DNA of 43,394 nucleotides, taken from a virus. The DNA lies in the IMG/VR virus record IMGVR_UViG_3300015263_000944, positions 1-43,394 of that record. The stretch is one strand, 5' to 3'. Under the pieces are notes generated by a model that worked only from the letters and a program-made list of their open reading frames with translations, did not search any database and was not told the origin of the DNA. A program made the position numbers and the translations under genes. The stretch's first letter is position 1. The number at the start of each line of letters is the position of its first letter. Below, piece after piece: positions 1,972 through 43,383 of this stretch.

Positions 1972-3093
1972 CTATGCGGCAAGCTCGTGCTCGGTGAGAC
2001 CACTCACCGGGGTTCGCACAACGAACCCCAGCAAGTGATCTACCACCTTGGATGCGTGGCTTGCGGCGTCAAAGATGTACTTGGGATCACTCTCCATGTG
2101 GCCGAGCCACGTCTTAACGTAAGACTGGCTTTGCTCCAACATCTGGTCGCTCATCGGCACGCCGATCTCCATGATAAGGAAACAGGCTCCGATCTCAGCG
2201 ATCAGTTCTTCAAAGGCATAGGGACGTTTTGAGTCCTTGATTGCCTTCTGCACGGACTTCACACGGCGAATGCCCCAATGGATCATCTCATGGAAGCGTG
2301 TTTCGTAGTAATCTGCCATCGAGGCGAAGGTTCGCTTCGGAGGCAGCATGATGGTGTCGGTTTGCTCCCGATAGATTGCTCGGTCGCCCCGATGGATCGT
2401 CTTCGCCCCAGTGTTGGACAGGAAGTCTTCCGCTGGCTTGAAGTCAGGTTCGGTGTTCTGAGTGCAAGGCAACGCTCGATACCGATCCAACTTGGCATCG
2501 ATGCCATTGGCGACATTGCTCGCAATGATCGAGACACGTCGCCGAGTCAGTTCGGCTGTCGCTCGTTTGCCCAAGTATCGCTCAGCGATCTCCAGCATCT
2601 CTGCGCCGCTGGTGCGACGGCTTTTGGTCTTGCGGCCCAACATCCGCTCGATGTTTGGCGATCTGCCATCCATCAATTCATCAACGCTGGGTGCCTTGAC
2701 CTGTGCGATGTTGTAGACGTAGAACTCACGCAGCAATGGCACCTTGATCGGTTCGCCCTTGCTGTTTCGGACCACCTTGCCGTTCTCGACCTTGTTGATG
2801 AAACGGAAGAGAGTGATTGCAGTGGGCAGTTCGTCATTGATGACCCCACCAACATTTCTCAACCACGTCAGATCGCTACCCCAGTGCTTCGACTCGAAGC
2901 CTTGCACAAGAGAGGACCACATCAGCAAGAGCGGGTTGATGCCGCTGTAGCGACGACCCGAGGCAAAGTTACATGGTGCTCCAGTATTGGAGTTGGTGCT
3001 CCATGCTCGTCGCCACGGGGGCAGCCCTTTGGCAAGGGCATCAACCATCAAAGCGGTAATGTTTTCACGGATTTGGTTTGCAGTTTTGTTCAT
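1972..3093 (-). CDS. ardC: ArdC-like antirestriction protein (N-terminal ssDNA-binding ArdC-N with PW..RRAW, C-terminal HExxH metallopeptidase-like motif HEMIHW)
   Basis: Track ORF; SD AAGGAGATA upstream of ATG 3093; HEMIHWG zincin-like motif and ArdC-N-like N-terminus recognised from memory; TAG stop. Confidence 0.65.
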   Translation of the reverse strand: MNKTANQIRENITALMVDALAKGLPPWRRAWSTNSNTGAPCNFASGRRYSGINPLLLMWSSLVQGFESKHWGSDLTWLRNVGGVINDELPTAITLFRFINKVENGKVVRNSKGEPIKVPLLREFYVYNIAQVKAPSVDELMDGRSPNIERMLGRKTKSRRTSGAEMLEIAERYLGKRATAELTRRRVSIIASNVANGIDAKLDRYRALPCTQNTEPDFKPAEDFLSNTGAKTIHRGDRAIYREQTDTIMLPPKRTFASMADYYETRFHEMIHWGIRRVKSVQKAIKDSKRPYAFEELIAEIGACFLIMEIGVPMSDQMLEQSQSYVKTWLGHMESDPKYIFDAASHASKVVDHLLGFVVRTPVSGLTEHELAA

Positions 3094-5719: not shown

Positions 5720-6910
5720 CTAGAAGCATCCCGCACATTGTTCACAGTCTTGGAACTCGAACTGATCGATGATGGGCAGCGAAGGCATTCCATCAATCAA
5801 CCCATTCGTTTGTATGAAATCGGCCATGCGCCCAGAACGATGCTTTGTGCGATGTCCCCACAATCCCTCAATCACTTGCAGTTGTTCTTGGCAGTTGTCT
5901 TCCATGCGAACAATGGCTCGCAGATAGTCACGACCATGTTCGGTTTGGGAATACAACTCCAACTCTTCTGCGGTGGTGGATGGACAGAACCAGCAAGCTG
6001 ATTTGACCGGCACCCCACCTTTCTTGATCCACTTGCGGCCAGTGTGATCGGACCAGCCGGGCAGACCTTCCTTCCGAATCTCTTCAAGGCATCGTTGACG
6101 ATCCCAGCCGAGTTCGATCAAAGGATACCAGTATTGGTACAACTGATCGTCGGTGATCTTGAATGAACGCCGTGAGTCATTCGGGCTTGCATCATAACCA
6201 ATCGCCACGATGCCTTGGTAGTGCTTGTCCCAGCACGTCTGGAATTCGTCAAGGCTCTCCCGGTATTTGTTCTGAGGCCCGATCTTCCACTTGGCACTGC
6301 ACTTTTTGCGTTTGAATGCCCATGAGGGGAGCGTGCGGTTGACGAGGCACTGTTGCTCCAGTGTGTGATACCAACCATTCTTCACTCGATCAGGAGAGGG
6401 CTTGTATCGCACAGTCACAACAGGCGGGAAACCCATCTGCTTGAGGTAGTCTTGAATGACTGGCTCGTAAGCATAGGTCTCTTTCTTCTCCGAGCCGGTG
6501 TCGGCGAAGGTGATGCAGGTCGGGCGGAACTGCGGACGCTTGTTCTTCTGTGAGTTGTAGAGCCGTGCCAGATGAATGAGCAGAGCGGTGCTGTCCACGC
6601 CCATCCCATAGCACACGGAGAAGGGACGGCCCATGCGGATGCGTTCCCACATGTTGTCGAAGGTGACAACCGGTGCAGGCTTGCACTCGGTCTCCATCTC
6701 CATGCTGAGTATGAGGCCACGAACTTCGGTGGCATTACCCAGCTTCATTTTCTTGGCCCAGTCAGATCGAGCTACATCCGCACACAGTTTGTTGAATGCG
6801 GCGAAGGGATCGGCGGCGATCTCTTCATCCATCTTCCATTCGATGTCGCTGATGACCCGCTGGAAGCGGGTGCGGTTGGGTTGTGCTTTCTCTTTGGTTT
6901 TGGTCGGCAT
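5720..6910 (-). CDS. PAPS reductase / DndC-like PP-loop ATP pyrophosphatase family protein with C-terminal Cys cluster
   Basis: Track ORF, ATG start with SD GGAGAA. PP-loop-like YGMGVDSTALLIHL (variant of SGGxDS) and C-terminal CWFCP...CEQCAGCF; TAG stop. Confidence 0.55.
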   Translation of the reverse strand: MPTKTKEKAQPNRTRFQRVISDIEWKMDEEIAADPFAAFNKLCADVARSDWAKKMKLGNATEVRGLILSMEMETECKPAPVVTFDNMWERIRMGRPFSVCYGMGVDSTALLIHLARLYNSQKNKRPQFRPTCITFADTGSEKKETYAYEPVIQDYLKQMGFPPVVTVRYKPSPDRVKNGWYHTLEQQCLVNRTLPSWAFKRKKCSAKWKIGPQNKYRESLDEFQTCWDKHYQGIVAIGYDASPNDSRRSFKITDDQLYQYWYPLIELGWDRQRCLEEIRKEGLPGWSDHTGRKWIKKGGVPVKSACWFCPSTTAEELELYSQTEHGRDYLRAIVRMEDNCQEQLQVIEGLWGHRTKHRSGRMADFIQTNGLIDGMPSLPIIDQFEFQDCEQCAGCF

Positions 6911-6941
6911 GTGGTTCTCCAGTTTTCCTGATGACGAACCA

Positions 6942-7251: not shown

Positions 7252-7281
7252 GATGCGATTGGGGTTCTGACCGGAAGCGGA

Positions 7282-26629: not shown

Positions 26630-28294
26630 CTAGAAGCTGATCTCGGCGAGATACTTCATCTCGATTCGACCACGCTTGTAGATGATCCATTCGTTGTTCT
26701 GGAGTCCGCCGTAGACGCCCCACGATGCGGTGTGACCAGCCTTGCCGAACACGCAGTGGTGCGGATTGGGCGGCGAGGTGAAACCGTGAGCATCCTTGGC
26801 AACGTGAGGGTTGCCGCAGATCACATCGAAGGCGAACATGAAGGCGTGACGACCAACCACTTCACCGCCACCACCATAGTAGGAGCGACGACCGGGATTG
26901 CACGACGAGCAATACCCTGCGGACTTTTTCCAATCGTCCGCAAAATATGACCCCGGCCCGAACATGGCACCGGTGATGATGACGCCGGTAAGTTGGTTCG
27001 GGAATCGCAGGTTCTCTCGTACAATGCCCGGCACGTTGACTGAACGTGTGCCGTGGAACATCAGGGCCGTGTTGGTATCGTAGTACAACTTGCGTTCCTG
27101 TGCCGTCAGATCGGGACGCTCACGCCACATCTGGTGCAATGGACGCTCGTTGTTCCACTTCTTCGGCATCTCGCCCAATGTGGCTTCCTGAGCAGCACGC
27201 ATGATCTTGCTGTCGCCGTCACGCTCGATTTCCCACATGTTGTGGACCTTGAGCTTGCCGACGTGACCATGCTTGTTGCGAGTGGAGTTGATCCACCAAT
27301 CTTCCAACCACTTGCCTTTCTCGCTCTTGGGGTCGAGATAAGCGACCTTGGCGGGAATACCGGCCATCACGTCGGTCTCGTCTTCCTCGATGTTCATGTC
27401 AACGGCTTGCAATGCCGTCTCGAACGCATCGATGTCGAGCCGCCATGTGGAGATGTTGTCTTGGCTCAGAATCCAGTCCGCTTCGGCGATACCCTGCGGC
27501 TTCGCCTTTGGAATGATGCCGTACAGGTGATAGGTGAGTTGCTTCAACTCGGTGTCGCTGACCTGAGCGGCCACCTCATTGCCGACGATCTTGATCCGAG
27601 CCATCGCATCATCCAGCACATCACGCCCTTCATCGAGGGCAGCTTGGGCTGGCAACGTGACCTTGCCGCTTTTGCCGCCAGACATGACGGCGTTGGTGTA
27701 GCTCACAGCACCACCGATTAGATCGGTGAACAACTTGCGAGTCTGCGGATCGAGATTGGACTTCTTCTTGGTCGTCTTCTTCTTCGAGGTAGGAGCGGCA
27801 GCCGGGGCAGCATTTGCGCCCTTGGCATCTTCGTTGGCGAGATTTTCGCAGCACGGCAAACCGACCAGACGTGTCGCCGACAAACGGACGACATACAAGT
27901 CTTTGCCCGGCTTGGCGACGAAGCGATCCTTCGAGCCGACCTTCTGCCATTGCCCACGACTGGTGTTCTTCGACTTGAACTGTTTCTCGCAACAGTCCTG
28001 TGCGTCTTGTTTCGACGAACACTCATGGAACTGGAATGAGGGCTTGTTGGGGCGACCGTCAGGCCGTGTGCGACCCCACTCGAAGTAGGCATAGAATTTG
28101 TTGTTGATGGTCGATTGGACGACGGCCAAGTGGTAATACTTGTTCGAGTCCACATCTTCCTGCTTGAAGCAGCCGAGATCGCAGAGGCAGGCATCGCCCC
28201 ACTCAGTATCTCGGCTGACGACCGGGCCGAGACCTTTGAAGTCACTGACACTGTGGCCCGCTGGCAGCGTTTGTTTTGCAAGTTTGGTCGCCAT
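26630..28294 (-). CDS. poly(ADP-ribose) polymerase-like protein: WGR domain + PARP catalytic domain with H-Y-E triad
   Basis: Track ORF, ATG with SD GGAGGAT. WGR motif YFEWGRTRPDG; catalytic motifs LMFHGTRS, GAMFGPGSYFADDWKKSAGYC and LQNNEWIIYKRGRIEMKYLAEI match the PARP1 sequences I recall. Confidence 0.65.
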   Translation of the reverse strand: MATKLAKQTLPAGHSVSDFKGLGPVVSRDTEWGDACLCDLGCFKQEDVDSNKYYHLAVVQSTINNKFYAYFEWGRTRPDGRPNKPSFQFHECSSKQDAQDCCEKQFKSKNTSRGQWQKVGSKDRFVAKPGKDLYVVRLSATRLVGLPCCENLANEDAKGANAAPAAAPTSKKKTTKKKSNLDPQTRKLFTDLIGGAVSYTNAVMSGGKSGKVTLPAQAALDEGRDVLDDAMARIKIVGNEVAAQVSDTELKQLTYHLYGIIPKAKPQGIAEADWILSQDNISTWRLDIDAFETALQAVDMNIEEDETDVMAGIPAKVAYLDPKSEKGKWLEDWWINSTRNKHGHVGKLKVHNMWEIERDGDSKIMRAAQEATLGEMPKKWNNERPLHQMWRERPDLTAQERKLYYDTNTALMFHGTRSVNVPGIVRENLRFPNQLTGVIITGAMFGPGSYFADDWKKSAGYCSSCNPGRRSYYGGGGEVVGRHAFMFAFDVICGNPHVAKDAHGFTSPPNPHHCVFGKAGHTASWGVYGGLQNNEWIIYKRGRIEMKYLAEISF

Positions 28295-32359: not shown

Positions 32360-33085
32360 TTACTTGGCTTCTGTATGTATGCGTGGCACGATCATAGTTC
32401 TAGGATGCACTTCTGCCGTCTTCAACAACATGACCAGTGTGTCAGGGCTGATCCCTGTGCCATCACAAAATTCGCATCGGCTGAGAGGCCCTAAATCAAA
32501 GTCCAACCATCTGCCAGTGCCGCCGCATCGTTCGCATTTTTGAACCACACTTCTCCCAGACATTGTGGTCTTGAAATCCCATGCCCCCTGAAAATGCTCA
32601 ACTTTCATCACCTCTCTGGAGCCCGATGCTGGGTCCGCAGTAATGATCGTATCGCTGGTGTAGCCTATGACGACAACGTAGTGCCATGTGGTGTCACCAC
32701 TTCTTAATAGGACGATGGGTGGCCGATCTTGGCTGACAAAATACTTCAACCGTTCAAGATCACCACGCAACATCTTGGCATCTATCCCAAAATGTTTGAG
32801 AGCAATAGGGAGGTACTCAGGAGAAGTCATCCCAATGGGCTCGCCGTGATATTCCAACCACTCAGTTTTTGTCTGCTTTTTCACCTCGTCCAGCGTGACC
32901 TCTTTCCCGTATCGCTTGAGCAACATGGTGACGCTCGTGGGTCCACAGGTGATGCCATCCGGTTGTTCGATGTATTGAAATCCGCCAACCTCATAAGACT
33001 CTGGGTGGGAATACTGCCAGTTGATTCCCCAGATAAAGGCCGCAACAGTAGTGATGATGAGTGTGACGAGCAAGATCTTTTTCAT
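32360..33085 (-). CDS. secreted papain-like cysteine peptidase, C39-like (peptidase_C39_2-type)
   Basis: Track ORF, ATG; N-terminal signal peptide; catalytic Cys in GITCGPTSV and His in WHYVVVIGY; C-terminal CxxC pairs. Confidence 0.5.
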   Translation of the reverse strand: MKKILLVTLIITTVAAFIWGINWQYSHPESYEVGGFQYIEQPDGITCGPTSVTMLLKRYGKEVTLDEVKKQTKTEWLEYHGEPIGMTSPEYLPIALKHFGIDAKMLRGDLERLKYFVSQDRPPIVLLRSGDTTWHYVVVIGYTSDTIITADPASGSREVMKVEHFQGAWDFKTTMSGRSVVQKCERCGGTGRWLDFDLGPLSRCEFCDGTGISPDTLVMLLKTAEVHPRTMIVPRIHTEAK

Positions 33086-34052: not shown

Positions 34053-35228
34053 TCAGTGATTTATGTGATCGGCAATGCCATTCAACATCATCCCGATCAT
34101 AGACCAGTCAACCTCGTCCGTCAAGAGAACGTCCCTTAATGTTTTCACCTCTACATAGGTTCGTTCTGTGTCCTCTATAACACCAAAAGTCTGTTGCTTC
34201 GCAGCAAGTTCCTCTGCTTGACGAATCTCCTCTTCTGTAAGCTCAACCGTGAAAAGCACAGCCTTGTGAGTCGAAAGCGTCGATGCTAATTGCCTTGCAC
34301 ACACCTGATTGAATCGACTGGCTGGTATTTCAAGTCCTGTCTCTTCTTTGAGTTCATCGGCGGCGATCTCCAACGCATTTTCTTTGTTCTTGAAAGAAGA
34401 ACCGCCCGGAAGCTCATGCACAAATCCTGTGCTGTTTCGAGCAGGAGAGCGAAACTCCTTGATCAGTACAATTTTTGTAGCCAAAAGATCGTTGGAGTCA
34501 AGATCCAGCCAGTAAGGCAAGATGGTGGAGATGTCCGAGCGGGTGAAGATGTACTCATTTTCCTTGTACCGCTGTTCGGAATCAATCCAGACTTTCACCC
34601 ACAAAATGTAGGAGAACAGGAAGTTGATCTTGGGGATCACAAACTTCCACAACACCTTGGCCTCATCAAGCCGATTGCCTGCGGCTTCTTGTTCCTTAAG
34701 CCATGCTTGGAACATCGGCGTATTGTAGATGTCTAGCGGCACATAGCGAGAGCCACCTTCACGATCTGCGCCCTTTAGTTCCGCAACTTGGCTTGCTAGT
34801 TGTTGTATGGAGTTGCACGGCTCACGGCCAGTACAATCTTTGTAAAGCCAGTCGAGATAGCGGGTCTTGGGTGCATCGTCTGGCCGACCATAGAAGAGCT
34901 TCCCATCGTTCACATATCGACCGAATTCAACATTCGTAGTGAAAGCAGGCATCGAGTCCAGATTTCGTGGCACCCACGCCACGATTCGGTCGGAAATTTC
35001 AAGACCCAGCTTCTCCCATTCAGTTTGAGAGTTATAGTCCTTCGACCATTCCCCGTCCCGAGCTTCGGGCACAAAGACATGACCATCGAAACCAGCTTCA
35101 GCTAGGGCCTCGATCATCTGGGGACGCCACGAAGCAACTGGGTTGTCTCGGCGTGGCGTAGGACCAACAAGAAAGACGGACTTGTTGATCGTATTGGGAA
35201 TCGCTTCCCTTGCGTAAATGATGTGCAT
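34053..35228 (-). CDS. fusion protein: N-terminal nucleoside 2-deoxyribosyltransferase-like Rossmann domain + C-terminal Nudix-like domain
   Basis: Track ORF, ATG with SD AAGGAGG. N-term VFLVGPT...HVFVPEARDGEW; C-term variant Nudix box E-x7-DELKEETGL. Confidence 0.5.
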   Translation of the reverse strand: MHIIYAREAIPNTINKSVFLVGPTPRRDNPVASWRPQMIEALAEAGFDGHVFVPEARDGEWSKDYNSQTEWEKLGLEISDRIVAWVPRNLDSMPAFTTNVEFGRYVNDGKLFYGRPDDAPKTRYLDWLYKDCTGREPCNSIQQLASQVAELKGADREGGSRYVPLDIYNTPMFQAWLKEQEAAGNRLDEAKVLWKFVIPKINFLFSYILWVKVWIDSEQRYKENEYIFTRSDISTILPYWLDLDSNDLLATKIVLIKEFRSPARNSTGFVHELPGGSSFKNKENALEIAADELKEETGLEIPASRFNQVCARQLASTLSTHKAVLFTVELTEEEIRQAEELAAKQQTFGVIEDTERTYVEVKTLRDVLLTDEVDWSMIGMMLNGIADHINH

Positions 35229-35304: not shown

Positions 35305-35907
35305 TTATCTCTGAAGTTGCGCCGTCAGCCCTGAGCGAGTGTACTTCATCATCGTGAAGACATCACTCCCGAAAGCCTCACTGATTTCCTCGCCACGGGT
35401 AAACATAGCATCCATCAAATCGCTGGCCTTCTTCCAGTATTTGACGGCGTACTCAGGATCACTCGACAACCAATCGCAGACGTTGCAGAAACGGTCGGCG
35501 CACTTGATGACCAGAGCATCCACGCTCTTCTGCATGAATGATCGCATGTAATCCCGCTTCTGAATGTGGTCGGGTCGCTCATCACGAGGGTCAGGAATGA
35601 ACGTCAACTCGCTCACGATTGAAGCGGCATCTTCGCCGATCACAGCGATGAGTTCCTCATCTGTGACACCACAATCCTCTTTGGTGTCATGGCAGATGGT
35701 GGCCTTCCATACCTTCAGATTCCGCAATTCCCACTCCGTACCAATGACTGTGAGAACAGACATGGGATGGACAATGAAAGGCAGGCCGCTTCCCTTGCGG
35801 AACTGTCCTCGATGTCGATCTGTGGCGAAATCAATGGCTGCGAGAATCTCGGATTGAGCGTCTTCTGTAAAGACATCCGGTTCAGGCGGCGGGATCACTT
35901 TGGTCAT
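35305..35907 (-). CDS. HD-domain small alarmone hydrolase (SpoT/Mesh1-like (p)ppGpp hydrolase family)
   Basis: Track ORF, ATG with SD GGAGGAGG. Motifs HRGQFRKGSGLPFIVHP and ICHDTKED. Confidence 0.6.
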   Translation of the reverse strand: MTKVIPPPEPDVFTEDAQSEILAAIDFATDRHRGQFRKGSGLPFIVHPMSVLTVIGTEWELRNLKVWKATICHDTKEDCGVTDEELIAVIGEDAASIVSELTFIPDPRDERPDHIQKRDYMRSFMQKSVDALVIKCADRFCNVCDWLSSDPEYAVKYWKKASDLMDAMFTRGEEISEAFGSDVFTMMKYTRSGLTAQLQR

Positions 35908-36013: not shown

Positions 36014-36745
36014 ATGACAAACTTCGTAATAATTGCAGAACTCCGTTCGGGATACCAACTTCTCGCCACACTGCTGAATTCAAATCCAGAGGTGTTGTGC
36101 TTGGGAGAGATTTATGGCCGCAAGAGATCTGTAAGAATACAGAGCCTTTTCGGCAATGAAGTTCCAGTTCTCGAAGATAGCGACTCGTCTGTGAATTACT
36201 TCAAGACGGTCCTTGCTCCATTGGCAGAGCGAACGAACCGGAAAGCTTTCGGTTTCAAACTCAATTATGTGGACTGCATGGAAAACGACAACTGGCGAGA
36301 GTTGTGGGATTTCATTGCGTCAGAAAGATGGCACGTCATTCATCTCCGACGACTCAATGTGCTGGATCGAGCCATCTCAGAGAAACTCGCCATTGAACAA
36401 TGGCGATGGAACAACGAGCAATATGACACACAGATCAGGATCACGTTTGATGAACTAGAGTTCTACTACCAACGTGCCCTTCGATGGCAAAAGTGGGCCA
36501 ACGATCACTTCAAAAACTCACCCATCTGCCATGTGACCTATGAAGAACTCACAAGGCAAAGATACCAAACCTGTCAGAAAGTGCAAGAGTTCTTGGGGGT
36601 TCAACCAAGAGAATTGACCTCGTTCATGCAAAAGCAGCGTGTGGGCGGGCAAGCTACATTCGTCAAAAACTACCGCCGACTCTACAGTCAATGTGTGAGC
36701 CACCCCATCTACAAGCACTGGCTAACCGACATCCCAGTCATCTAG
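36014..36745 (+). CDS. sulfotransferase (Stf0-like PAPS-binding loop RSGYQLLATLL)
   Basis: Track ORF 36011 (GTG)/36014 (ATG); weak SD. Confidence 0.5.
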   Translation: MTNFVIIAELRSGYQLLATLLNSNPEVLCLGEIYGRKRSVRIQSLFGNEVPVLEDSDSSVNYFKTVLAPLAERTNRKAFGFKLNYVDCMENDNWRELWDFIASERWHVIHLRRLNVLDRAISEKLAIEQWRWNNEQYDTQIRITFDELEFYYQRALRWQKWANDHFKNSPICHVTYEELTRQRYQTCQKVQEFLGVQPRELTSFMQKQRVGGQATFVKNYRRLYSQCVSHPIYKHWLTDIPVI

Positions 36746-37856
36746 GGAACGAAATCTGGACCAGTTCTTGGATTTCGGATGCGGCCTTCTTGTCCACCAA
36801 TGGGGCGACATCAAATGGCTTGATGTACTGCAAATCCATCTTGAGTTCTTTGGCTCGCTCTTGAGCTTTCAGTGAGTTCTCCTTGAAGATGCCGACGTTG
36901 TTTTGGTTGAGGATCAAGTCCCCCAACTGAACCACCCCTGCTTGATCGTAGGTGGGAAGCATCCAGATTGAGTCCACCCCGATGTCGGCTGCCATCTCAA
37001 CCATTGCTGTCATCTCATGTACATTCAGCATATTGATGTTGTTGTAGATGGTGGTTCGATGATGCCACCCCTTCCCAATCTCATCTCGTATCTTGATCCA
37101 TCGCCTGAGATTCGCAACTACCTTATCCAACGCATCCAAGCGGCGAATCTTTTTGTGCGTAGCTGGCGTGGCGGCATCTAAGGACCACGAAATTTCCGAC
37201 CAATCTACATTGTCAAAGAATCTCCGACACACCTTCTCTGTGAGACAAATGCCGTTGGTGTTGGTGGTGAATCGAATGTGATGTTTCTCAAAATCAAACC
37301 GCACCTTCTCGAAGATACGGAACACAGCATTTTGCCAGAATGGTTCTGCAATCCCAAGAACAGAAAACTGGGTCAGATAAGGCATGAGTGGCCGGGCCTT
37401 CTCGCACAGCATATCGGTCAAATCCTCCTGTTGTGGCTTCACAAAATTGCGGATACACATGATGCACGCAGGGTTTTCCTCACTGGGCTCATACCCTCCA
37501 ATGTTGCAGTGCCGATCTGGAAGACAAATCTCAAGCCATGTGGGGTAAAATGAATTCGCATATGTGGGGGCCGGTCCAGACTTCTTTGGTTTCACCTTGT
37601 AAGGACAAGCTGTACCTTGACCACATACAGGATGCAATTGCCCCGCCTCTGTTTGTTTGCGAATTTCATTCGCTAATGGACCTCTCCAAAGATCAAGAAC
37701 TTCTGTGGTAGCATCCAGCCTTCCGAGTTGAACCATCTGGTAACAACACATCGATACATCGCCCCAACTATTGAGAATCACTTTGTTGTGAGGGTTGGAG
37801 CAGAATGTATTGGTTTTGGTTCCAAATCGTCCTATATCTTGAGCCAGTTTCAGCAT
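36738..37856 (-). CDS. non-canonical radical-SAM-like enzyme, paralog A (FC-x17-CC N-terminal motif; HCNIGG-x13-ACIMC; GIAEPFW; TTNTNG)
   Basis: Track ORF 36738..37970; I choose ATG 37856 because it gives the same spacing to the FC motif as the paralogs and removes the 110-nt overlap (37907 or 37934 also possible). Confidence 0.45.
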   Translation of the reverse strand: MLKLAQDIGRFGTKTNTFCSNPHNKVILNSWGDVSMCCYQMVQLGRLDATTEVLDLWRGPLANEIRKQTEAGQLHPVCGQGTACPYKVKPKKSGPAPTYANSFYPTWLEICLPDRHCNIGGYEPSEENPACIMCIRNFVKPQQEDLTDMLCEKARPLMPYLTQFSVLGIAEPFWQNAVFRIFEKVRFDFEKHHIRFTTNTNGICLTEKVCRRFFDNVDWSEISWSLDAATPATHKKIRRLDALDKVVANLRRWIKIRDEIGKGWHHRTTIYNNINMLNVHEMTAMVEMAADIGVDSIWMLPTYDQAGVVQLGDLILNQNNVGIFKENSLKAQERAKELKMDLQYIKPFDVAPLVDKKAASEIQELVQISFPR

Positions 37857-37860
37857 ATCA

Positions 37861-39459
37861 TCAAATGAACATGGGGCGTTGACCAGTAATCGAGACAAGC
37901 TCGACATCTTTACCAGCCATATCCTTCTGGGCATCCTCCAGAGTGTTACAAATCGGTCTCTTCTTGCCATTCAGTGAAGTGTTAATCAAACATTCCACAC
38001 CACTTTCTTCACCATAAGCTACCAACAACTGATGCAGCCATGGATCGTCTTGCTTGTTTACTACTTGGGGACGAGCAGTCCCATCTTTATGAACAATGGC
38101 AGGCAGCAACTCTTTTGCCTCTTCCGTACAATGCACTCGATATTGCATGTATTTTCCACGGGGGCCAATGAAGAAGCGGTCAAATTGCTCTGCTGTCACA
38201 ATCGGAGCAAGAGGTCGGTAGAACTCTCTCTTTTTAATCTGTTGCGAAACTCTTCTGAGGTTTTTTCTATTCTTCGCAGAAGCAAGGATCGAACGAAAGC
38301 CTAGTGCCCGTGGACCAGCTTCGGCTTTGCCACGCAACAGACCGATTACCTGACCGTTCGATAGTCGTGATGCGATTTGTTCCGGCTGCTGTGGGCCGAG
38401 ACGAGGCAGAGGCGTTTGCAAGGTGTGCAAAGAAGGTGACGAGAGTTTGGGCCACCAACCATTGAGGTGATAGAAAGCCCATGCTGCGGCACCCAGAGCA
38501 AGTCCGCTATCATCTGTTGGGGGACCGAACACCACGTCTTTCACCATGCCGTGAATGCGTGTGTTGAGTTCGAGGGCCAGTGTTGTGCCACCACCAATCA
38601 CCACACCTCGACCCATTCCAAATTTTGTAATGTTGTCTTCAATCCCCGGCCAGATGATATCGTTGGTGTACCACTTGTAAAAGTGGGCAACGTAATCCAT
38701 GTTCTCTCGGGTAAGTTGCCACGAGTAATTAGGAATTGTTGGATATTGAGTGGTGTGCGTGTATGGGTCCATGCTGAACTCCACCGTCTTTCGCACAAAC
38801 TCCCAGCCATTCCATTTTCGACAGTTGGTGACATATCCAGCCAGCCCCATAGCCTTTCCAGCACTGTTGTATCCCAACAGACTCGTGAGGGGGATGCTGG
38901 TCGGGATGACAGGTGCTCGCTCAAATCTCCGTACTCCTGATGGTCCAATCTCACCCACCAACGAAGAATGAGGAACACCATGAGCGTCTAATCCGACGCC
39001 ATCGTATGCCATAAAGAACCGTTCTTGGTCATCTGGCCGAAAACACCAAGCAGAAACTATGTGAGCGAGATGATGGTTGATCACCATGTCTGGGTTGCGA
39101 CCCAGCGTCCAATAGATGAAGTTTTCTCGTTCCTTTGGTGCGTAGGAGCGGATCAGGAAAGGATCGTATTTTGTTGATTCTGTGCTGATGTTACCGATAC
39201 TATGCCACAGTTCCTCTTTGGTGGCGTGCTCTCCACCAATTGCCACCAAAACACAGAAATCATCATCCCGCAGCGGCCCGAGATCGGGAAAGTATTCTGC
39301 CAGACAGCTTAATGCAGGCTTCTCGGCATTGTAATCATATCCGCCGTGGTTCTTTTTCCTTTTGTAGCGTTCGCATTGAGCGTAGAACTCAACCTCGCCG
39401 TCCTCATTGATAATAACGACTGCCGAATCATGTCCAAAATGTACGCCGATGAATCTCAT
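37861..39459 (-). CDS. carbamoyltransferase (NodU/CmcH family)
   Basis: Track ORF, ATG. N-terminal MRFIGVHFGHDSAVVIINEDGEV and HHLAHIVSAW hallmark motifs. Confidence 0.65.
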   Translation of the reverse strand: MRFIGVHFGHDSAVVIINEDGEVEFYAQCERYKRKKNHGGYDYNAEKPALSCLAEYFPDLGPLRDDDFCVLVAIGGEHATKEELWHSIGNISTESTKYDPFLIRSYAPKERENFIYWTLGRNPDMVINHHLAHIVSAWCFRPDDQERFFMAYDGVGLDAHGVPHSSLVGEIGPSGVRRFERAPVIPTSIPLTSLLGYNSAGKAMGLAGYVTNCRKWNGWEFVRKTVEFSMDPYTHTTQYPTIPNYSWQLTRENMDYVAHFYKWYTNDIIWPGIEDNITKFGMGRGVVIGGGTTLALELNTRIHGMVKDVVFGPPTDDSGLALGAAAWAFYHLNGWWPKLSSPSLHTLQTPLPRLGPQQPEQIASRLSNGQVIGLLRGKAEAGPRALGFRSILASAKNRKNLRRVSQQIKKREFYRPLAPIVTAEQFDRFFIGPRGKYMQYRVHCTEEAKELLPAIVHKDGTARPQVVNKQDDPWLHQLLVAYGEESGVECLINTSLNGKKRPICNTLEDAQKDMAGKDVELVSITGQRPMFI

Positions 39460-39482
39460 GTCGTTATCATAGTATATACCGT

Positions 39483-40508
39483 ATGATCAATTCGTGGAGA
39501 ATCGAACGAACCGCCTTTTGCAACTATCCTTTTCAGAGGGTCAAAATAGACTCCGAGGGATACTGCAACTTCTGCTGTTCTCACGCTCGTCGCTGTCTGG
39601 GGAACGTCTTAGAGAAAGATCTCTGGGACATTTGGAACTGTCCAAAAGCCAAGAAAATTAGGGAAGACACGTTGCGAGGCGTAATGCACCCGACATGTGC
39701 CCAAGAATCATGTCCTCTCTTCCATATTAGAGACAATCTACCTTCTAAGACGTTTACCCAAAAAGAGTTGCCATCTCAATTTGAGATTGATCTACCAAAT
39801 ACCCACTGCAACATCGGCGGCACGAAGCCTACCGCAGACACAGCTTGCATCATGTGCGAGAGGGCTGCCCCCAATTTCGTCCCACAAATTGATCGGCTGC
39901 CAGAAGTTTGTGAGGCCCTGAAACCTTATGTGAAATACATCGACACGATCCATGTGCAAGGAGTGGCCGAACCATTCTGGCAAGGCCGCATCTTCGATTG
40001 TCTGGAGGCTCTGGGCGTCGATAAATACAAAGATCAAATCGTGGTCAGCACAACCACGAATGGCACCGTGATCGATGCAAAGAAGATGGAAAAATGGTTG
40101 GCATATCCGAAAAGTTGCGCCACCTTCTCGTTGGATGCCGCAACACCAGAGACGTACCAAAAGATCCGTCGCCTCAACGCCTATCACGCTGTGATCAAAA
40201 CCATGCTGAGGCTTAACCAACAGCGAACCGGACAACAGAAGATGTACATCCACAACAACATCAATCTGTTGAACATCGCCGAGGTCTCACAGATGGTTGA
40301 AACGGCAGCAATGGTGGGCGCAGATTCTATCAGCTTTCAGCCAACATCATGTTTGCCGGGATTAGAGGTGTCGGCTTCCAACCTCAAACAATTCAATGAA
40401 GCCGAAACACAAATTTTGGAATCAGCAGATAGGCTAGGTGTGACTGTGGAGTTTTGGAGAAAGTTGACGCTGGACATTGAGCCCACCCTTGTTCAACTTA
40501 AAGTGTGA
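39483..40508 (+). CDS. non-canonical radical-SAM-like enzyme, paralog B
   Basis: Track ORF, ATG. FCNYPFQRVKIDSEGYCNFCC; HCNIGGTKPTADTACIMCER; GVAEPFW; TTTNGT; C-terminal IHNNINLLNIAEV. Confidence 0.5.
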   Translation: MINSWRIERTAFCNYPFQRVKIDSEGYCNFCCSHARRCLGNVLEKDLWDIWNCPKAKKIREDTLRGVMHPTCAQESCPLFHIRDNLPSKTFTQKELPSQFEIDLPNTHCNIGGTKPTADTACIMCERAAPNFVPQIDRLPEVCEALKPYVKYIDTIHVQGVAEPFWQGRIFDCLEALGVDKYKDQIVVSTTTNGTVIDAKKMEKWLAYPKSCATFSLDAATPETYQKIRRLNAYHAVIKTMLRLNQQRTGQQKMYIHNNINLLNIAEVSQMVETAAMVGADSISFQPTSCLPGLEVSASNLKQFNEAETQILESADRLGVTVEFWRKLTLDIEPTLVQLKV

Positions 40509-41559
40509 GTTGAACAAGGTGCTCTGTCATGCCCAGATCGAGCGGGCGGATGAAGTTGTAAGGCACATTCAATCGCTTGCATTCTGCAATAATATCTTGT
40601 TGGGCCTTTTTGAAGAGCCCACAGTTGTCCTCATTGACCAAGATCTTGTAATTGAACCCATCTGTAGGATTGAACTCGACATATTCCACATTGGCCTTGG
40701 CTGCGATCTGCACCATACCTACAACTTCTTGAACATTCATGATGTTGATGTTGTTGTGGATTCGTAAGAACTGGCGACTTCTTACACGCTCTTTCGAGAA
40801 AGCGTAAAGAGTTTCGATCACTTTGTCGAAACAGTCGAAGATGCGGATTCTCTTGAAGGTTTCCGGCGTGGCGGCATCGATTGAGAAGTTTGTGATGCTA
40901 TGAGGGGCACGTCGCAAATACTCCTCACGCACTCGCTTCTTTAAGAGTGTGCCATTCGTTGTGACACTAAGTGTGATTTGATCGGCATACTCATCGAAAC
41001 CTAAAACGTCCATCACATCAAACAACAGAAAACCATCTTCCCGTGTTTGCAGGAACGGCTCAGCAATACCTTGGATGTGAATCTGTTTGAGATTGGGAAC
41101 AATATGCTTGATTCGTCCCAACACTTCAAACAGATGATCTTTCTCTGGCCTGAAGAATGGAGCGGATCGCTCGCACATAATGCAAGCTGGCGACTTCTCT
41201 GGATCAGGGTTCTTTCCGCCCACATTGCAGTGAGTGTTGGGGAGGTCGATTTCTAAGAAGTTGGGATACTCGTTGTAGACAATCCGCTTCTTGGGATAGG
41301 GTTTCTCCATCGACTTGTAAGGACAGCCCGGAGTACAACATTTGGAATGGAGTTGCCCATTGCGAGTCGATTCTCGGATCGCCTCGGCCACTTCTCCAAA
41401 CCACACCTCATCGAATGTGTTCTCCAGCACATTGCCCACATAGGCTTCCGCCTCGGGCTTCAGAGGGTCGGGCCGCATGAAGCAACACATGGCAAGGTTG
41501 CCCTCGCATGTGATTCTGGCCCGGTTGAACGGCATGTCACAAAAAGCTTCTATCCACAT
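40498..41559 (-). CDS. non-canonical radical-SAM-like enzyme, paralog C
   Basis: Track ORF, ATG. HCNVGGKNPDPEKSPACIMCER; GIAEPFL; TTNGT. Confidence 0.5.
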   Translation of the reverse strand: MWIEAFCDMPFNRARITCEGNLAMCCFMRPDPLKPEAEAYVGNVLENTFDEVWFGEVAEAIRESTRNGQLHSKCCTPGCPYKSMEKPYPKKRIVYNEYPNFLEIDLPNTHCNVGGKNPDPEKSPACIMCERSAPFFRPEKDHLFEVLGRIKHIVPNLKQIHIQGIAEPFLQTREDGFLLFDVMDVLGFDEYADQITLSVTTNGTLLKKRVREEYLRRAPHSITNFSIDAATPETFKRIRIFDCFDKVIETLYAFSKERVRSRQFLRIHNNINIMNVQEVVGMVQIAAKANVEYVEFNPTDGFNYKILVNEDNCGLFKKAQQDIIAECKRLNVPYNFIRPLDLGMTEHLVQLTL

Positions 41560-41984
41560 GCACTATTAGAGTTCGACTGCGGTAAAAAGAATCCGCAATT
41601 AGTGCATTGTTCACCTTCGACACGATGCTTGCATTTGGGACAATACGGCTCGAAGGGGTTGATGTTGCTGCGGATCAAACTCCACTCCTCGTCGGTGGGT
41701 TCCCGCCAGCAATTTGTGCTCACATCCACATCATATTCACCTTCCCAATCCCGTGAGTAATGGAAGATGCCTTCCCAGACCCAAATGCCTTCATCGGGGG
41801 AGTTGTTGTCGGTGATCCCCAATTCATCAGCACTGGCTCCAAGGGCGTCGATTTCATGTTCAAGAATTTCGCCGTAGAACCAGATGATGAAGCCTCCAGA
41901 CTTGGAGAATCCGATCAGTGCTCGTTGAACCGGGTCCGCTGGAAAACTTGCTTCCTGACTAATCTGGCTCAGATCGAATTTCAT
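41550..41984 (-). CDS. hypothetical acidic protein with C-terminal zinc ribbon (CPKC...CTNC)
   Basis: Track ORF 41550..42017 (TTG) trimmed to ATG 41984, which overlaps the upstream TGA as ATGA; TAG stop. Confidence 0.4.
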   Translation of the reverse strand: MKFDLSQISQEASFPADPVQRALIGFSKSGGFIIWFYGEILEHEIDALGASADELGITDNNSPDEGIWVWEGIFHYSRDWEGEYDVDVSTNCWREPTDEEWSLIRSNINPFEPYCPKCKHRVEGEQCTNCGFFLPQSNSNSACG

Positions 41985-43012
41985 AACAGAATCTCTGAGA
42001 GGTGCTTCATGTCCCAACTCATATTGTCGAAGACAGGTGTATCCGTGTAACTGCTGAGTTCTTTGATCCCCAGTGGTGAAGAAGAAATCTTCCCAGAAAC
42101 AGCATCCGGTTTCAAGCCGAACTGGCTTTGGAGCACTTGTAGGCCACCCACCGCTCCGAACGCATCGCTGGCAGCAAAGATCAGACGGTGGATGCGTTTC
42201 TGAACCGTTGGATTCGACAACAGCATGGCCGTCTCACGCTGGATGATTCCATCTGCTAACTCCACAACCCAGAAGTTGCGTGGGTTGTTGGCATACTTCA
42301 GGTCAGTCTCGTTAAAGATTCGCAACAACTCCGACTCGTCCATCATGTATGTTGATGGATACCCGAAGTATGTGAAATCGTTGATGTAAGATGCGCCACA
42401 ATCCTGCATTCGCAGGATATCTTTCAAGCTGGCTGTCCCTGTGATCTTCGAGGCCCGGACATTGTGTCCCATTGACGAAAGAGCCCAACAGCAGGCTGCC
42501 GCCGTATAACTCTTGCCAGCATTCATCGATGTCCCCACCACCAAGATCAGTTTGGCACGAGAATCTTTCTCATCGGCATCAGTCGCCTTGGGTTTGATGA
42601 TGGGATAACGACGTGTGTTGAGCACCTCGCCATCGTCGTCGATAACGTAACCCAGCACCTTGATCTTAGTGGGTTCTTGGATCACCGAATTCTTATGGAG
42701 CATCGTGGCAATCACGCCAGAGCGTGCCACGAGGTCAATCTCATGGGGGCAATCATCTGGGATGATAGCCTCGTAATAGTCTGGGGCATAGCGGTTGCCG
42801 AAAACGAACAGCCCTTTTGTGCCCTCGTTCACGGAGTGGATTCGGCCCGACTTGTTCTCCAGATCGGTGTGTTGTCCCTTGCGGACGACTTTGCCATAAA
42901 CAACATCACCGATCTCAGGTTTTTTGTCCCGAAACTCATACGACTTGATGAGTTTCTTTCCGAGACAATAGGCCGCACTGGTGAAGATATAGCCGGGGGA
43001 AATCCGTTTCAT
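41981..43012 (-). CDS. DUF1611-like protein with CobQ/MinD-type P-loop (GTSMNAGKS)
   Basis: Track ORF 41981..43081 trimmed to ATG 43012 (MKRISPGYIF) overlapping the upstream TGA. Confidence 0.45.
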   Translation of the reverse strand: MKRISPGYIFTSAAYCLGKKLIKSYEFRDKKPEIGDVVYGKVVRKGQHTDLENKSGRIHSVNEGTKGLFVFGNRYAPDYYEAIIPDDCPHEIDLVARSGVIATMLHKNSVIQEPTKIKVLGYVIDDDGEVLNTRRYPIIKPKATDADEKDSRAKLILVVGTSMNAGKSYTAAACCWALSSMGHNVRASKITGTASLKDILRMQDCGASYINDFTYFGYPSTYMMDESELLRIFNETDLKYANNPRNFWVVELADGIIQRETAMLLSNPTVQKRIHRLIFAASDAFGAVGGLQVLQSQFGLKPDAVSGKISSSPLGIKELSSYTDTPVFDNMSWDMKHLSEILL

Positions 43013-43383
43013 TCCTCGTCCTTTACGAAGTAAGAACAGTAAGGGCAGTAGGCCCAGTGAGGTTCGAGTTCTTTCTGGCAATTCTTACAAACCGGATCTT
43101 CGTCATCGTGCCAACGATCTTTCTTGTGCCATCGAATTTGCAACAACACAATGACAACTGGCACGATGGTCGCCATCTGTCTGAAAATCCAGATGATGTC
43201 ACCGGTGCCATTGTGCCAATCGATAGATGCTTTCGTCAATAGGGCGAAGTATCCAACAAGTAAGAACGCATAAGTCCAACCGGAGATATCCCGCACTTCA
43301 CGATGTTTATGAATCTTCCAGACTTGCAACCAATAGCTGGCCGCAAGCACGCCAATGGCGATCCATGTGATTGTTTGAATCAT
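43009..43383 (-). CDS. small membrane protein (LAB_N-like domain, tentative) with C-terminal zinc ribbon
   Basis: Track ORF, ATG with SD AGGAAGG. Confidence 0.45.
   Translation of the reverse strand: MIQTITWIAIGVLAASYWLQVWKIHKHREVRDISGWTYAFLLVGYFALLTKASIDWHNGTGDIIWIFRQMATIVPVVIVLLQIRWHKKDRWHDDEDPVCKNCQKELEPHWAYCPYCSYFVKDEE

Follow-up and report, generated by a model that had tools for sequence, protein, structure and literature searches.

Do three neighbouring viral genes, whose products resemble radical S-adenosylmethionine (SAM) enzymes with unusually spaced cysteines, encode functional enzymes, and what would such enzymes modify? We addressed this question for the IMG/VR virus record IMGVR_UViG_3300015263_000944, of which positions 1 to 43,394 were analysed (hereafter, the window). 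The source is a 100.7-kb Joint Genome Institute (JGI) metagenome contig that probably belongs to a huge phage; no virion structural genes were identified among the window genes. The three open reading frames, here termed paralogues A, B and C (Table 1), lie where an initial annotation, made from the nucleotide sequence alone, had placed them, on the strands it had given. Its description of them as paralogues is borne out by full-length identities of 34% (B versus A) and 41% (B versus C) and by scores of 367-474 bits (367 bits for A) against a hidden Markov model (HMM) of the family. The start codons chosen there are also right, since homologues align from residue 1 and include the first conserved cysteine. 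The start of A at 37856 matches the N-termini of homologues and lies 4 nt from the stop codon of a carbamoyltransferase gene, and the 3' end of C overlaps B by 11 nt in convergent orientation. The public JGI calls (L001; loci and proteins are cited by L and P numbers) start late, at internal methionine codons, and give B 274 and C 330 residues. These truncated products lose conserved cysteines of the N-terminal auxiliary domain described below, and their precomputed Pfam annotation consists of a weak Radical_SAM match with no SPASM. With gene calls cut short and a Pfam radical SAM model that stays below threshold for all three proteins, metagenome catalogues probably under-annotate the family.

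By predicted fold, all three proteins belong to the radical SAM superfamily, and by predicted domain content they are of the SPASM/twitch type. An AlphaFold2 model of B, built on the family alignment (predicted local distance difference test score 95.3; predicted template modelling score 0.91), contains the partial (beta/alpha)6 core of the TIM barrel that the initial annotation had proposed to look for, and Foldseek comparison with PDB agrees with a radical SAM fold. The nearest viral models in BFVD are uncharacterised phage radical SAM proteins with 12-18% identity. The G(V/I)AEPF(W/L), TTNGT and IHNNIN elements noted earlier are present, A carrying the variants NTNGI and IYNNIN. Among the predicted SAM-binding motifs, Q-G-(V/I)-A-E-P-F has G160 and E163 invariant, T-T-N-G has N193 invariant, and S216-x-D218 is itself invariant.

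Three formal hallmarks are nevertheless missing: the canonical cysteine spacing, a C-terminal position of the auxiliary domain, and scores above the cutoffs of the Pfam family Radical_SAM (PF04055) and the NCBIfam family NF033640. For PF04055, the scores are 24.5 (A), 25.0 and 26.7 bits (E 7e-6 to 3e-5) against a gathering threshold of 29.5, and the match begins at profile position 10, past the usual first cysteine; some homologues do pass the threshold (P0133, 37.1 bits; P0136, 32.0 bits). The earlier assignment to a MoaA/PqqE-type barrel did not survive profile comparison, in which the NCBIfam models, with cutoffs of 231 bits or higher, gave 17-38 bits, and identity with MoaA/PqqE was rejected at this equivalog level. 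Identity with QueE was rejected on fold and profile comparison, and the candidates viperin and classical C-terminal SPASM enzyme were likewise discarded.

The most distinctive feature of the family is a stretched loop at the predicted SAM-cluster site. The HCN(I/V)GG...ACIMC segment of the initial annotation occurs in all three proteins, and the canonical CxxxCxxC occurs nowhere in them, as had been stated. Its spacings had been miscounted: the first and second cysteines are separated by 13 (A), 12 (B) and 14 (C) residues, and 8 (A), 7 (B) and 9 (C) residues, rather than 9-11, lie between GG and A-C. In place of CX3CX2C, the proteins thus carry C-x12/13/14-C-x2-C, at the equivalent position after strand E99-102. 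Among the 120 best database homologues, C-x12-14-C-x2-C is kept in every one and the canonical motif is found in none; the pattern counts were 90 for x13, 15 for x12 and 9 for x14, and the remaining six escaped the pattern only through a phenylalanine where other residues were allowed. Such retention is far beyond chance. Consistently, C109, C122 and C125 are invariant in a family alignment of 122 sequences with a mean identity of 36%, and all family copies in the 19 fetched loci follow C-N-phi-G-(G/L/P)-x-x-P-x3-6-(A/T/V)-C-phi-M-C.

Shorter loops exist within the family. The canonical x3 spacing is found in P0134, P0176 and P0183 (CNT(T/A)C(I/L/M)MC) and an x5 spacing in seven other members (for example, CNINPSCIMC), and more distant relatives with an N-terminal twitch domain carry CNLKC(I/V)MC. 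Since the x3 and x5 members align in register with HCN...ACIMC of B, the HCN cysteine is the homologue of the canonical first cysteine. Relative to members with the canonical motif, the loop holds an insertion (N-phi-G-G-x-x-P...) of 9 residues in B and of 9-11 family-wide, and it has been lengthened stepwise between the first two cysteines, from x3 through x5 to x11-14. Alternatively, the stretched motif might have lost the ability to bind the SAM cluster, leaving the proteins as Fe-S or structural scaffolds, as the missing CxxxCxxC and a Pfam match that is below threshold and starts past the first cysteine could suggest. We consider such degeneration very improbable, because the 122 sequences show no or almost no variation in the three cysteines, G(V/I)AEPF, TTNG and S-x-D, and because QueE is functional with CX14CX2C (PMC4389238). 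Moreover, loop length varies (x3, x5, x11-14) while the cysteines stay fixed, which argues for a tolerated insertion rather than decay.

Extended loops have been described elsewhere, in QueE (CX14CX2C) and HmdB (CX5CX2C) (PMC4389238), and RadicalSAM.org catalogues uncharacterised clusters with CXnCX2C, n = 4-11 (PMC9477430). The likeness to QueE in the long first spacing, which had been noted in the initial annotation, is therefore supported by published data (PMC4389238). Its view of the motif as a rarity stands as regards the non-canonical spacing of A, B and C but not as regards extended loops in general, which were already catalogued for n = 4-11 (PMC9477430). In view of these precedents, the principle of a stretched loop is not new; what is new is the length of the loop and its presence in a twitch-type enzyme.

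A second peculiarity concerns domain order. The previously reported FC-x17-CC signature is present in all three proteins, and the accompanying statement that a SPASM tail is lacking holds at the C-terminus. At the N-terminus, however, Pfam SPASM (PF13186) matches A, B and C with 27-37 bits (27 for A), above its curated cutoff of 21.5, and FC-x17-CC is the first half of this SPASM/twitch domain, which occupies residues ~7-80 ahead of the core. In the literature, SPASM/twitch domains are defined as C-terminal (PMC9477430), a placement that A, B and C do not share; the CX9-15GX4C signature of the subgroup is present, as C13-x12-G26-x4-C31 in B. While a phmmer search of B against PDB sequences returned nothing, the family profile (122 sequences) did align, with E = 6.6e-5, to residues 163-249 of BtrN, its twitch domain. 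In this alignment, C13, C31 and C77 coincide with C169, C187 and C235, which are cluster ligands of BtrN, and C72 is offset by two residues from C232, since CX4C of the family corresponds to CX2C in BtrN. Five N-terminal cysteines are conserved (C13, C31, C32, C72 and C77). As a full SPASM domain has 7-8 cysteines and two clusters and a twitch domain 3-4 cysteines and one cluster, this number suits a twitch domain with one auxiliary cluster rather than a full SPASM domain with two, and the domain probably holds one auxiliary [4Fe-4S] cluster. Among NCBIfam models, NF033640 (N_Twi_rSAM) ranks first for B (72.7 bits) and C (59.6 bits) and second for A (50.6 bits), although none of the three comes near its curated cutoff of 170. 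The family is a clear case of a twitch domain shifted to the N-terminus.

Outgroup proteins offer a possible explanation for this shift. Some have the core followed by the twitch domain (P0246, P0250, P0255, P0258, P0262), others are tandem (core-twitch) proteins with two to three units (P0211, P0215, P0227, P0230, P0234, P0239, P0245, P0256), and still others consist of two (twitch-core) units (P0237, P0241, P0247, P0263). Because a twitch-core unit is inherent in any (core-twitch)n array, the N-terminal twitch domain may plausibly have arisen by circular permutation through duplication and fission, via tandem-fused ancestors. The tandem fusions also show that these modules tend to act in multiples within a single polypeptide. 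Such multi-radical SAM megaproteins, among them P0211, P0215 and P0227 (1431-1927 aa) and, with the reverse domain order, P0237, P0241, P0247 and P0263, appear uncharacterised. Separately, a shared extension of ~110 residues (GYVDG...GWAWDP...GIGDG.HGF) is C-terminal in P0098, P0125 and P0163 and N-terminal in P0133, and a different N-terminal extension of 220-290 residues occurs in P0130, P0132, P0136 and P0140, of which P0132 is encoded at 1038-2936 of L011, a contig of a Bdellovibrionales metagenome-assembled genome (MAG). These extensions have no Pfam match and match only one another and L011. The N-terminal extension of P0176 was considered as a sulfotransferase domain and dropped, the similarity not being significant (BLASTP E = 11; Pfam E = 0.32).

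The initial annotation had regarded the enzymes as undescribed. In agreement, the family is uncharacterised, and literature searches for N-terminal SPASM/twitch domains, radical SAM proteins of huge phages and CX12/13CX2C motifs found no paper describing it. A search of 1.84 billion representatives (clustered at 50% identity) places 206 clusters in the family at E<=1e-30. It is enriched on, and nearly confined to, large phage-like contigs: seven related IMG/VR loci lie on viral contigs of 8-459 kb, three of which (L004-L006, contigs of 177-459 kb) have many backbone genes in common with the window, and other carriers are metagenomic contigs of 70-690 kb. Two short contigs (L020, L021) gave no usable gene context. 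Among 50,697 GenBank phage records, tblastn of A, B and C found no real homologue, the sole match being a Wolbachia WO fusion of a GT1 glycosyltransferase with a radical SAM protein (E = 7e-3), and PHROG matches of the family are marginal (20-24 bits). By tblastn, then, cultured phages yielded no homologue. A scan of bacteria and archaea (one genome per species, 185,579 species) returned three hits, all on Bdellovibrionota MAG contigs; as it was pattern-seeded and needed exact matches, this number is a lower bound.

The window and ten related loci (L002, L004-L006, L014-L017, L022, L023) form one clade with a common gene order: one to three GT2 glycosyltransferase genes, an M50 protease gene (lacking in some), ClpX, GGACT, a variable cassette and, in most loci, HD_4, followed by a C39-like peptidase gene (in some loci), an RNA ligase gene and a poly(ADP-ribose) polymerase (PARP) gene. 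The cassette holds between one (L023) and five (L016) family paralogues, with two to five in L002, L004, L005, L006, L014, L015, L016 and L022, together with zero to two carbamoyltransferase genes. Further cassette genes encode a sulfotransferase (window, L005), methyltransferases (L002, L016), a GT1-like protein (L016) and a protein of 280-310 residues of unknown function (L004, L006). C is the most conserved paralogue across the related phage contigs, with orthologue identities of 62-78% (L002, L004, L005, L006), followed by A with 53-58% (L002, L005, L006) and B with 45-53%. As A-, B- and C-type orthologues can be recognised across genomes, they represent an old set of specialised paralogues rather than a recent local duplication. 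These arrays fit joint or sequential action of the paralogues, conceivably on one substrate, as had been suggested from the window alone. DNA repeats within 35-43.4 kb, tried as recombination sites, were rejected as such, for they are leftover similarity between the paralogues (HCNIGG, AEPFW and IHNNIN regions).

The carbamoyltransferase gene between A and B is a recurrent partner. PDB relatives of its product are NovN, GdmN and TobZ (E about 1e-29 to 1e-34), and its orthologues adjoin family genes in L002, L004 (two copies), L006 and L016/L017. It stands head-to-head with B over an AT-rich spacer of 23 nt (39460-39482, gtcgttatcatagtatataccgt), and such head-to-head pairs, with spacers of 23-58 nt, recur in L002 (9973-10000), twice in L004 (one at 7276-7298), in L006 and in L016. 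Start codons 23-58 nt apart leave too little room for two separate promoters; scans for promoters and terminators gave results at or near the shuffled background. With the backbone as reference, this pair has opposite orientations in the window and in L002. On the other side of A, a sulfotransferase gene converges on A and overlaps its 3' end. Its orthologue in L005 (43% identity) lies between two family genes, and other sulfotransferase genes occur near family members in L018/L019 and L024; the window protein is a probable tailoring partner of the cassette. The HD_4 gene adjoins the cassette in L002, L005, L014, L015 and L016 and was not seen beside it in L022 and L023; its link to cassette function is uncertain and may reflect backbone synteny only. 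The only family match of the 280-residue window protein is below threshold (Nucleotid_trans, E = 0.046), and the protein is possibly a cassette component displaced in the window.

Table 1. Positions of the three radical SAM paralogues, their motifs and associated genes in the 43,394-nt window.
Feature	Coordinates	Strand	Remarks
Radical SAM paralogue A, 372 aa	36738..37856	-	N-terminal twitch domain and radical SAM core; C117-x13-C131-x2-C134
Radical SAM paralogue B, 341 aa	39483..40508	+	Twitch cysteines C13, C31, C32, C72, C77; C109-x12-C122-x2-C125
Radical SAM paralogue C, 353 aa	40498..41559	-	Motif C111-x14-C126-x2-C129
Cluster loop codons of A, C117...C134 (CNIGGYEPSEENPACIMC)	37455..37508	-	Coordinates counted from the start of the reading frame at 37856
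Cluster loop codons of B, C109...C125 (CNIGGTKPTADTACIMC)	39807..39857	+	
Cluster loop codons of C, C111...C129 (CNVGGKNPDPEKSPACIMC)	41173..41229	-	
N-terminal twitch (truncated SPASM) domain of B, C13 to C77, with C-x12-G-x4-C	39519..39713	+	Pfam SPASM 36.1 bits, residues 13-77
NodU/CmcH-type O-carbamoyltransferase, 532 aa	37861..39459	-	Pfam Carbam_trans_C E=2.7e-49; PHROG 1601, 243 bits
Sulfotransferase-family protein, 244 aa	36011..36745	+	Pfam Sulfotransfer_3 E=1.3e-8, 35.8 bits, above cutoff
HD_4 (SpoT/RelA-type HD) phosphohydrolase, cassette flank	35305..35907	-	Pfam HD_4 33.2 bits
Unknown protein, 280 aa	30159..31001	-	Homologues inside the radical SAM/carbamoyltransferase cassette of L004 and L006

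The carbamoyltransferase between the paralogues and the adjacent sulfotransferase, on which the initial annotation was silent, point to carbohydrate tailoring. Transfer to sugar hydroxyls is typical of O-carbamoyl-, sulfo-, methyl- and glycosyltransferases, and genes of all four kinds lie in or beside the phage-contig cassettes; the upstream GT2 genes are present in every clade locus whose fetched flank extends far enough. Outside the main clade, family members are accompanied by GT1, Sulfotransfer_3 and GT2 genes (L018/L019), by GT2/7C, FkbM-type methyltransferase, GNAT and Sulfotransfer_2 genes (L024), and by a GT2/GT9 fusion, a methyltransferase and a sugar nucleotidyltransferase (L003). 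Two relatives, P0246 and P0250, are fusions of a GT4 domain with the radical SAM core and the twitch domain. A further relative, P0211, matches CBM_6 below threshold (22.4 bits; cutoff, 28.9 bits). Bacterial relatives whose twitch domain is N-terminal, and to which the family HMM gives 87-89 bits, are encoded on a Manganitrophus plasmid, inside an exopolysaccharide locus (GT4 genes, alginate lyase, ABC transporter, alginate export), and on a Paracoccus plasmid, flanked by nucleotide-sugar dehydrogenase and GT25/GT genes. On plasmid pBHWA1 of Brachyspira hyodysenteriae there are seven radical SAM/SPASM genes, five of them in tandem, among rfbABCD, rfbF and glycosyltransferase genes; this block is strain-variable, correlated with virulence and functionally unstudied (PMC4267127). 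The carbamoyltransferase itself has relatives of about 27% identity in cultured cyanophages and pelagiphages; in HTVC008M the gene clusters with those of a glycosyltransferase, a methyltransferase, a UDP-glucose dehydrogenase and a 2-oxoglutarate oxygenase, and in S-SSM7 its neighbourhood was uninformative.

The reading that we favour, and to which we assign about an even chance, is that A, B and C are functional twitch-type radical SAM enzymes of one family that tailor a carbohydrate together with the transferases of the cassette. Each paralogue would bind its cluster, cleave SAM and take hydrogen from a different position or residue of the carbohydrate, be it a glycan or a nucleotide sugar. 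The chemistry might follow that of BtrN, DesII, AprD4 and BlsE, with oxidation, epimerisation, deoxygenation or decarboxylation at sugar carbons and with the twitch cluster as the presumed electron relay, and the transferases would then add carbamoyl and sulfate groups to hydroxyls of the same carbohydrate. The biological target could be a virion glycan, the host envelope or a DNA-linked sugar. A broader version of this idea, which we deem somewhat unlikely, is that a widespread clade of huge phages possesses a combinatorial tailoring system, in which one to five radical SAM enzymes with expanded cluster loops and with N-terminal twitch domains derived by circular permutation are mixed with carbamoyl-, sulfo-, methyl- and glycosyltransferases and produce undescribed, radically modified sugars. 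Carried by the virion, by the host envelope or by glycosylated DNA, such sugars would then diversify host range or evade defence.

Several observations speak against the carbohydrate reading, beginning with the sub-threshold Radical_SAM scores given above. The link to glycans comes from gene neighbourhood only, much of it within one phage clade with inherited synteny, and independent contexts (L007/L010, L008/L009, L012) are without obvious sugar genes. Both the carbamoyltransferase and the sulfotransferase are optional: L015 has three radical SAM genes and neither transferase, so the radical SAM enzymes are independent of both. In addition, nearby HD, Nudix/deoxyribosyltransferase-like and DNA methylase genes allow for a nucleotide or DNA target, and on that alternative the enzymes would modify nucleotides or phage DNA, the carbamoyl- and sulfotransferases would finish the adduct, and the whole would serve as an anti-restriction device. 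The window cassette is indeed flanked by the HD_4 phosphohydrolase and a fusion of nucleoside deoxyribosyltransferase-like and Nudix domains; the L003 family member adjoins a DNA methyltransferase gene (MethyltransfD12), a strong N6_N4_Mtase match lies about 3 kb away in L004/L006, and the L007/L010 neighbour has an N6_N4_Mtase match that is sub-threshold only. Nucleotide-acting viperin, MoaA and QueE are among the structural or profile neighbours, and genomes that are otherwise syntenic differ widely in their cassettes, a hypervariability that an arms race would predict. We nonetheless judge this alternative unlikely: no hydroxymethylase, kinase or transglycosylase of the pyrimidine and deazapurine hypermodification pathways familiar to us was seen near the cassettes, HD_4 was not seen beside the cassette in L022 and L023, and the nearest bacterial relatives lie in polysaccharide rather than nucleotide loci.

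A third group of substrates comes to mind because most characterised SPASM/twitch enzymes act on peptides, and SuiB, SkfB, CteB and the anaerobic sulfatase-maturing enzyme (anSME) are among the best structural matches. As maturases of the anSME type, or of the type that acts on peptides that are ribosomally synthesised and post-translationally modified (RiPPs), A, B and C would introduce cross-links, epimerisations or formylglycine into a phage peptide or structural protein. The conserved backbone near the cassette includes a C39-peptidase-like protein, an M50 protease and ClpX, and thuricin CD offers a precedent, two radical SAM enzymes reportedly acting together on this one RiPP. Yet no RiPP recognition element or PqqD-like recognition domain was found, the N-terminus being the twitch domain, and in the tightly packed genes no conserved short precursor-type reading frame was noticed beside the cassettes, although no systematic search was made. 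Since the partner transferases (O-carbamoyl, sulfo, methyl and glycosyl) are of kinds typically met in sugar tailoring, and the bacterial relatives are found in polysaccharide loci or fused to GT4, peptide maturation seems decidedly unlikely to us, and carbohydrate tailoring remains our preferred reading.

Some other genes in and around the cassettes deserve mention. Homing endonuclease genes lie in or beside the cassettes of L006 (LAGLIDADG, 11081-11854), L014 (LAGLIDADG, 6023-6940) and L023 (HNH, 11098-12150), which would fit a cassette that acts as a gene-exchange hotspot. Just past C, a 366-residue protein (41981-43081, minus strand) has a weak match to the P-loop family DUF1611_C (22.7 bits, below cutoff) and no homologue in the related loci examined. 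On the other flank, the 391-residue fusion protein (34053-35228, minus strand) combines an N-terminal nucleoside 2-deoxyribosyltransferase-like domain (PF15891) with a probable Nudix C-terminal half; the latter has weak PDB matches (E = 0.064), and the fusion is conserved near the cassette in L005 and L015. The C39-peptidase-like protein (32360-33085, minus strand) has an N-terminal hydrophobic segment and a C-terminal zinc-finger repeat of the CxxCxGxG type (CERCGGTG...CEFCDGTG), and similar C39-domain proteins are encoded in L005, L015 and L016.

Elsewhere, the window encodes a sigma factor, ArdC, ParB-like and 3'-phosphoadenosine 5'-phosphosulfate (PAPS) reductase-like proteins, AAA ATPases, PARP, RNA ligase, HNH and Nudix proteins. 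The PARP gene (26630-28294, minus strand; 554 aa) combines a WGR domain with the PARP catalytic domain and is conserved clade-wide (L002, L014-L017, L022, L023); a PARP-like protein is unusual for a phage. A PAPS reductase-like gene (PHROG 424) lies near a ParB-like gene (PHROG 3264), at 5720-6910 and 7282-8703, respectively, both on the minus strand and neither with a Pfam match, a pairing that we take to resemble IbrA/IbrB-type modules. At 1972-3093 (minus strand), an ArdC-N domain is joined to a zincin-like MPTase-PolyVal metallopeptidase in an anti-restriction-type fusion, a hint that this contig also harbours a conjugative-element or anti-defence toolkit.

Thousands of radical SAM families are still uncharacterised. 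Should the enzymes described here be active, radical chemistry would join the tailoring toolkit of huge phages, whose auxiliary metabolism is largely unknown, and the natural x3, x5, x11-14 series would serve to probe how far a SAM-cluster loop can be stretched. The pairing of radical SAM enzymes with O-carbamoyl-, sulfo- and methyltransferases predicts unusual decorated sugars, which could matter in phage-host recognition, and the distant relatives on the Brachyspira plasmid suggest a possible parallel with virulence-linked bacterial surface glycans.

Several known systems resemble the family in part. The family shares with the uncharacterised subfamily NF033640 the order of an N-terminal twitch domain followed by the radical SAM core, and relatives align to profile positions 3-310 of 398; the last ~90 positions, however, are unmatched, and any relative tested scores at most 112 bits. 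In its x12-14 loop insertion, the window family also differs from the distant N-twitch relatives P0249, P0253 and P0244, which have CxxxCxxC. The polysaccharide-locus arrays of Brachyspira, Manganitrophus and Paracoccus contain homologues (tblastn E 1e-6 to 4e-12) that lie among genes for glycosyltransferases and nucleotide-sugar enzymes, in Brachyspira as several tandem paralogues, but identities are 24-26%, the motif is canonical CxxxCxxC, the replicons are bacterial, and the Brachyspira twitch domain is C-terminal. The RadicalSAM.org clusters likewise display natural variation of the first SAM-cluster spacing, but belong to other megaclusters; in the examples listed, n is never 12-14 and no N-terminal twitch domain is described (PMC9477430). 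QueE of Burkholderia multivorans has a similarly long loop between the first two cysteines in a cluster site that is otherwise canonical (PMC4389238). Finally, BtrN, a 2-deoxy-scyllo-inosamine dehydrogenase, is a twitch radical SAM enzyme that acts on an aminoglycoside sugar and serves as our model for the proposed chemistry. Its twitch domain is C-terminal, its motif is canonical and similarity in the core region is not significant, so that a shared function would be an extrapolation; the twitch cysteine ligands are nonetheless in register, one auxiliary cluster is predicted for the family, and the BtrN substrate is a small molecule of the carbohydrate type.

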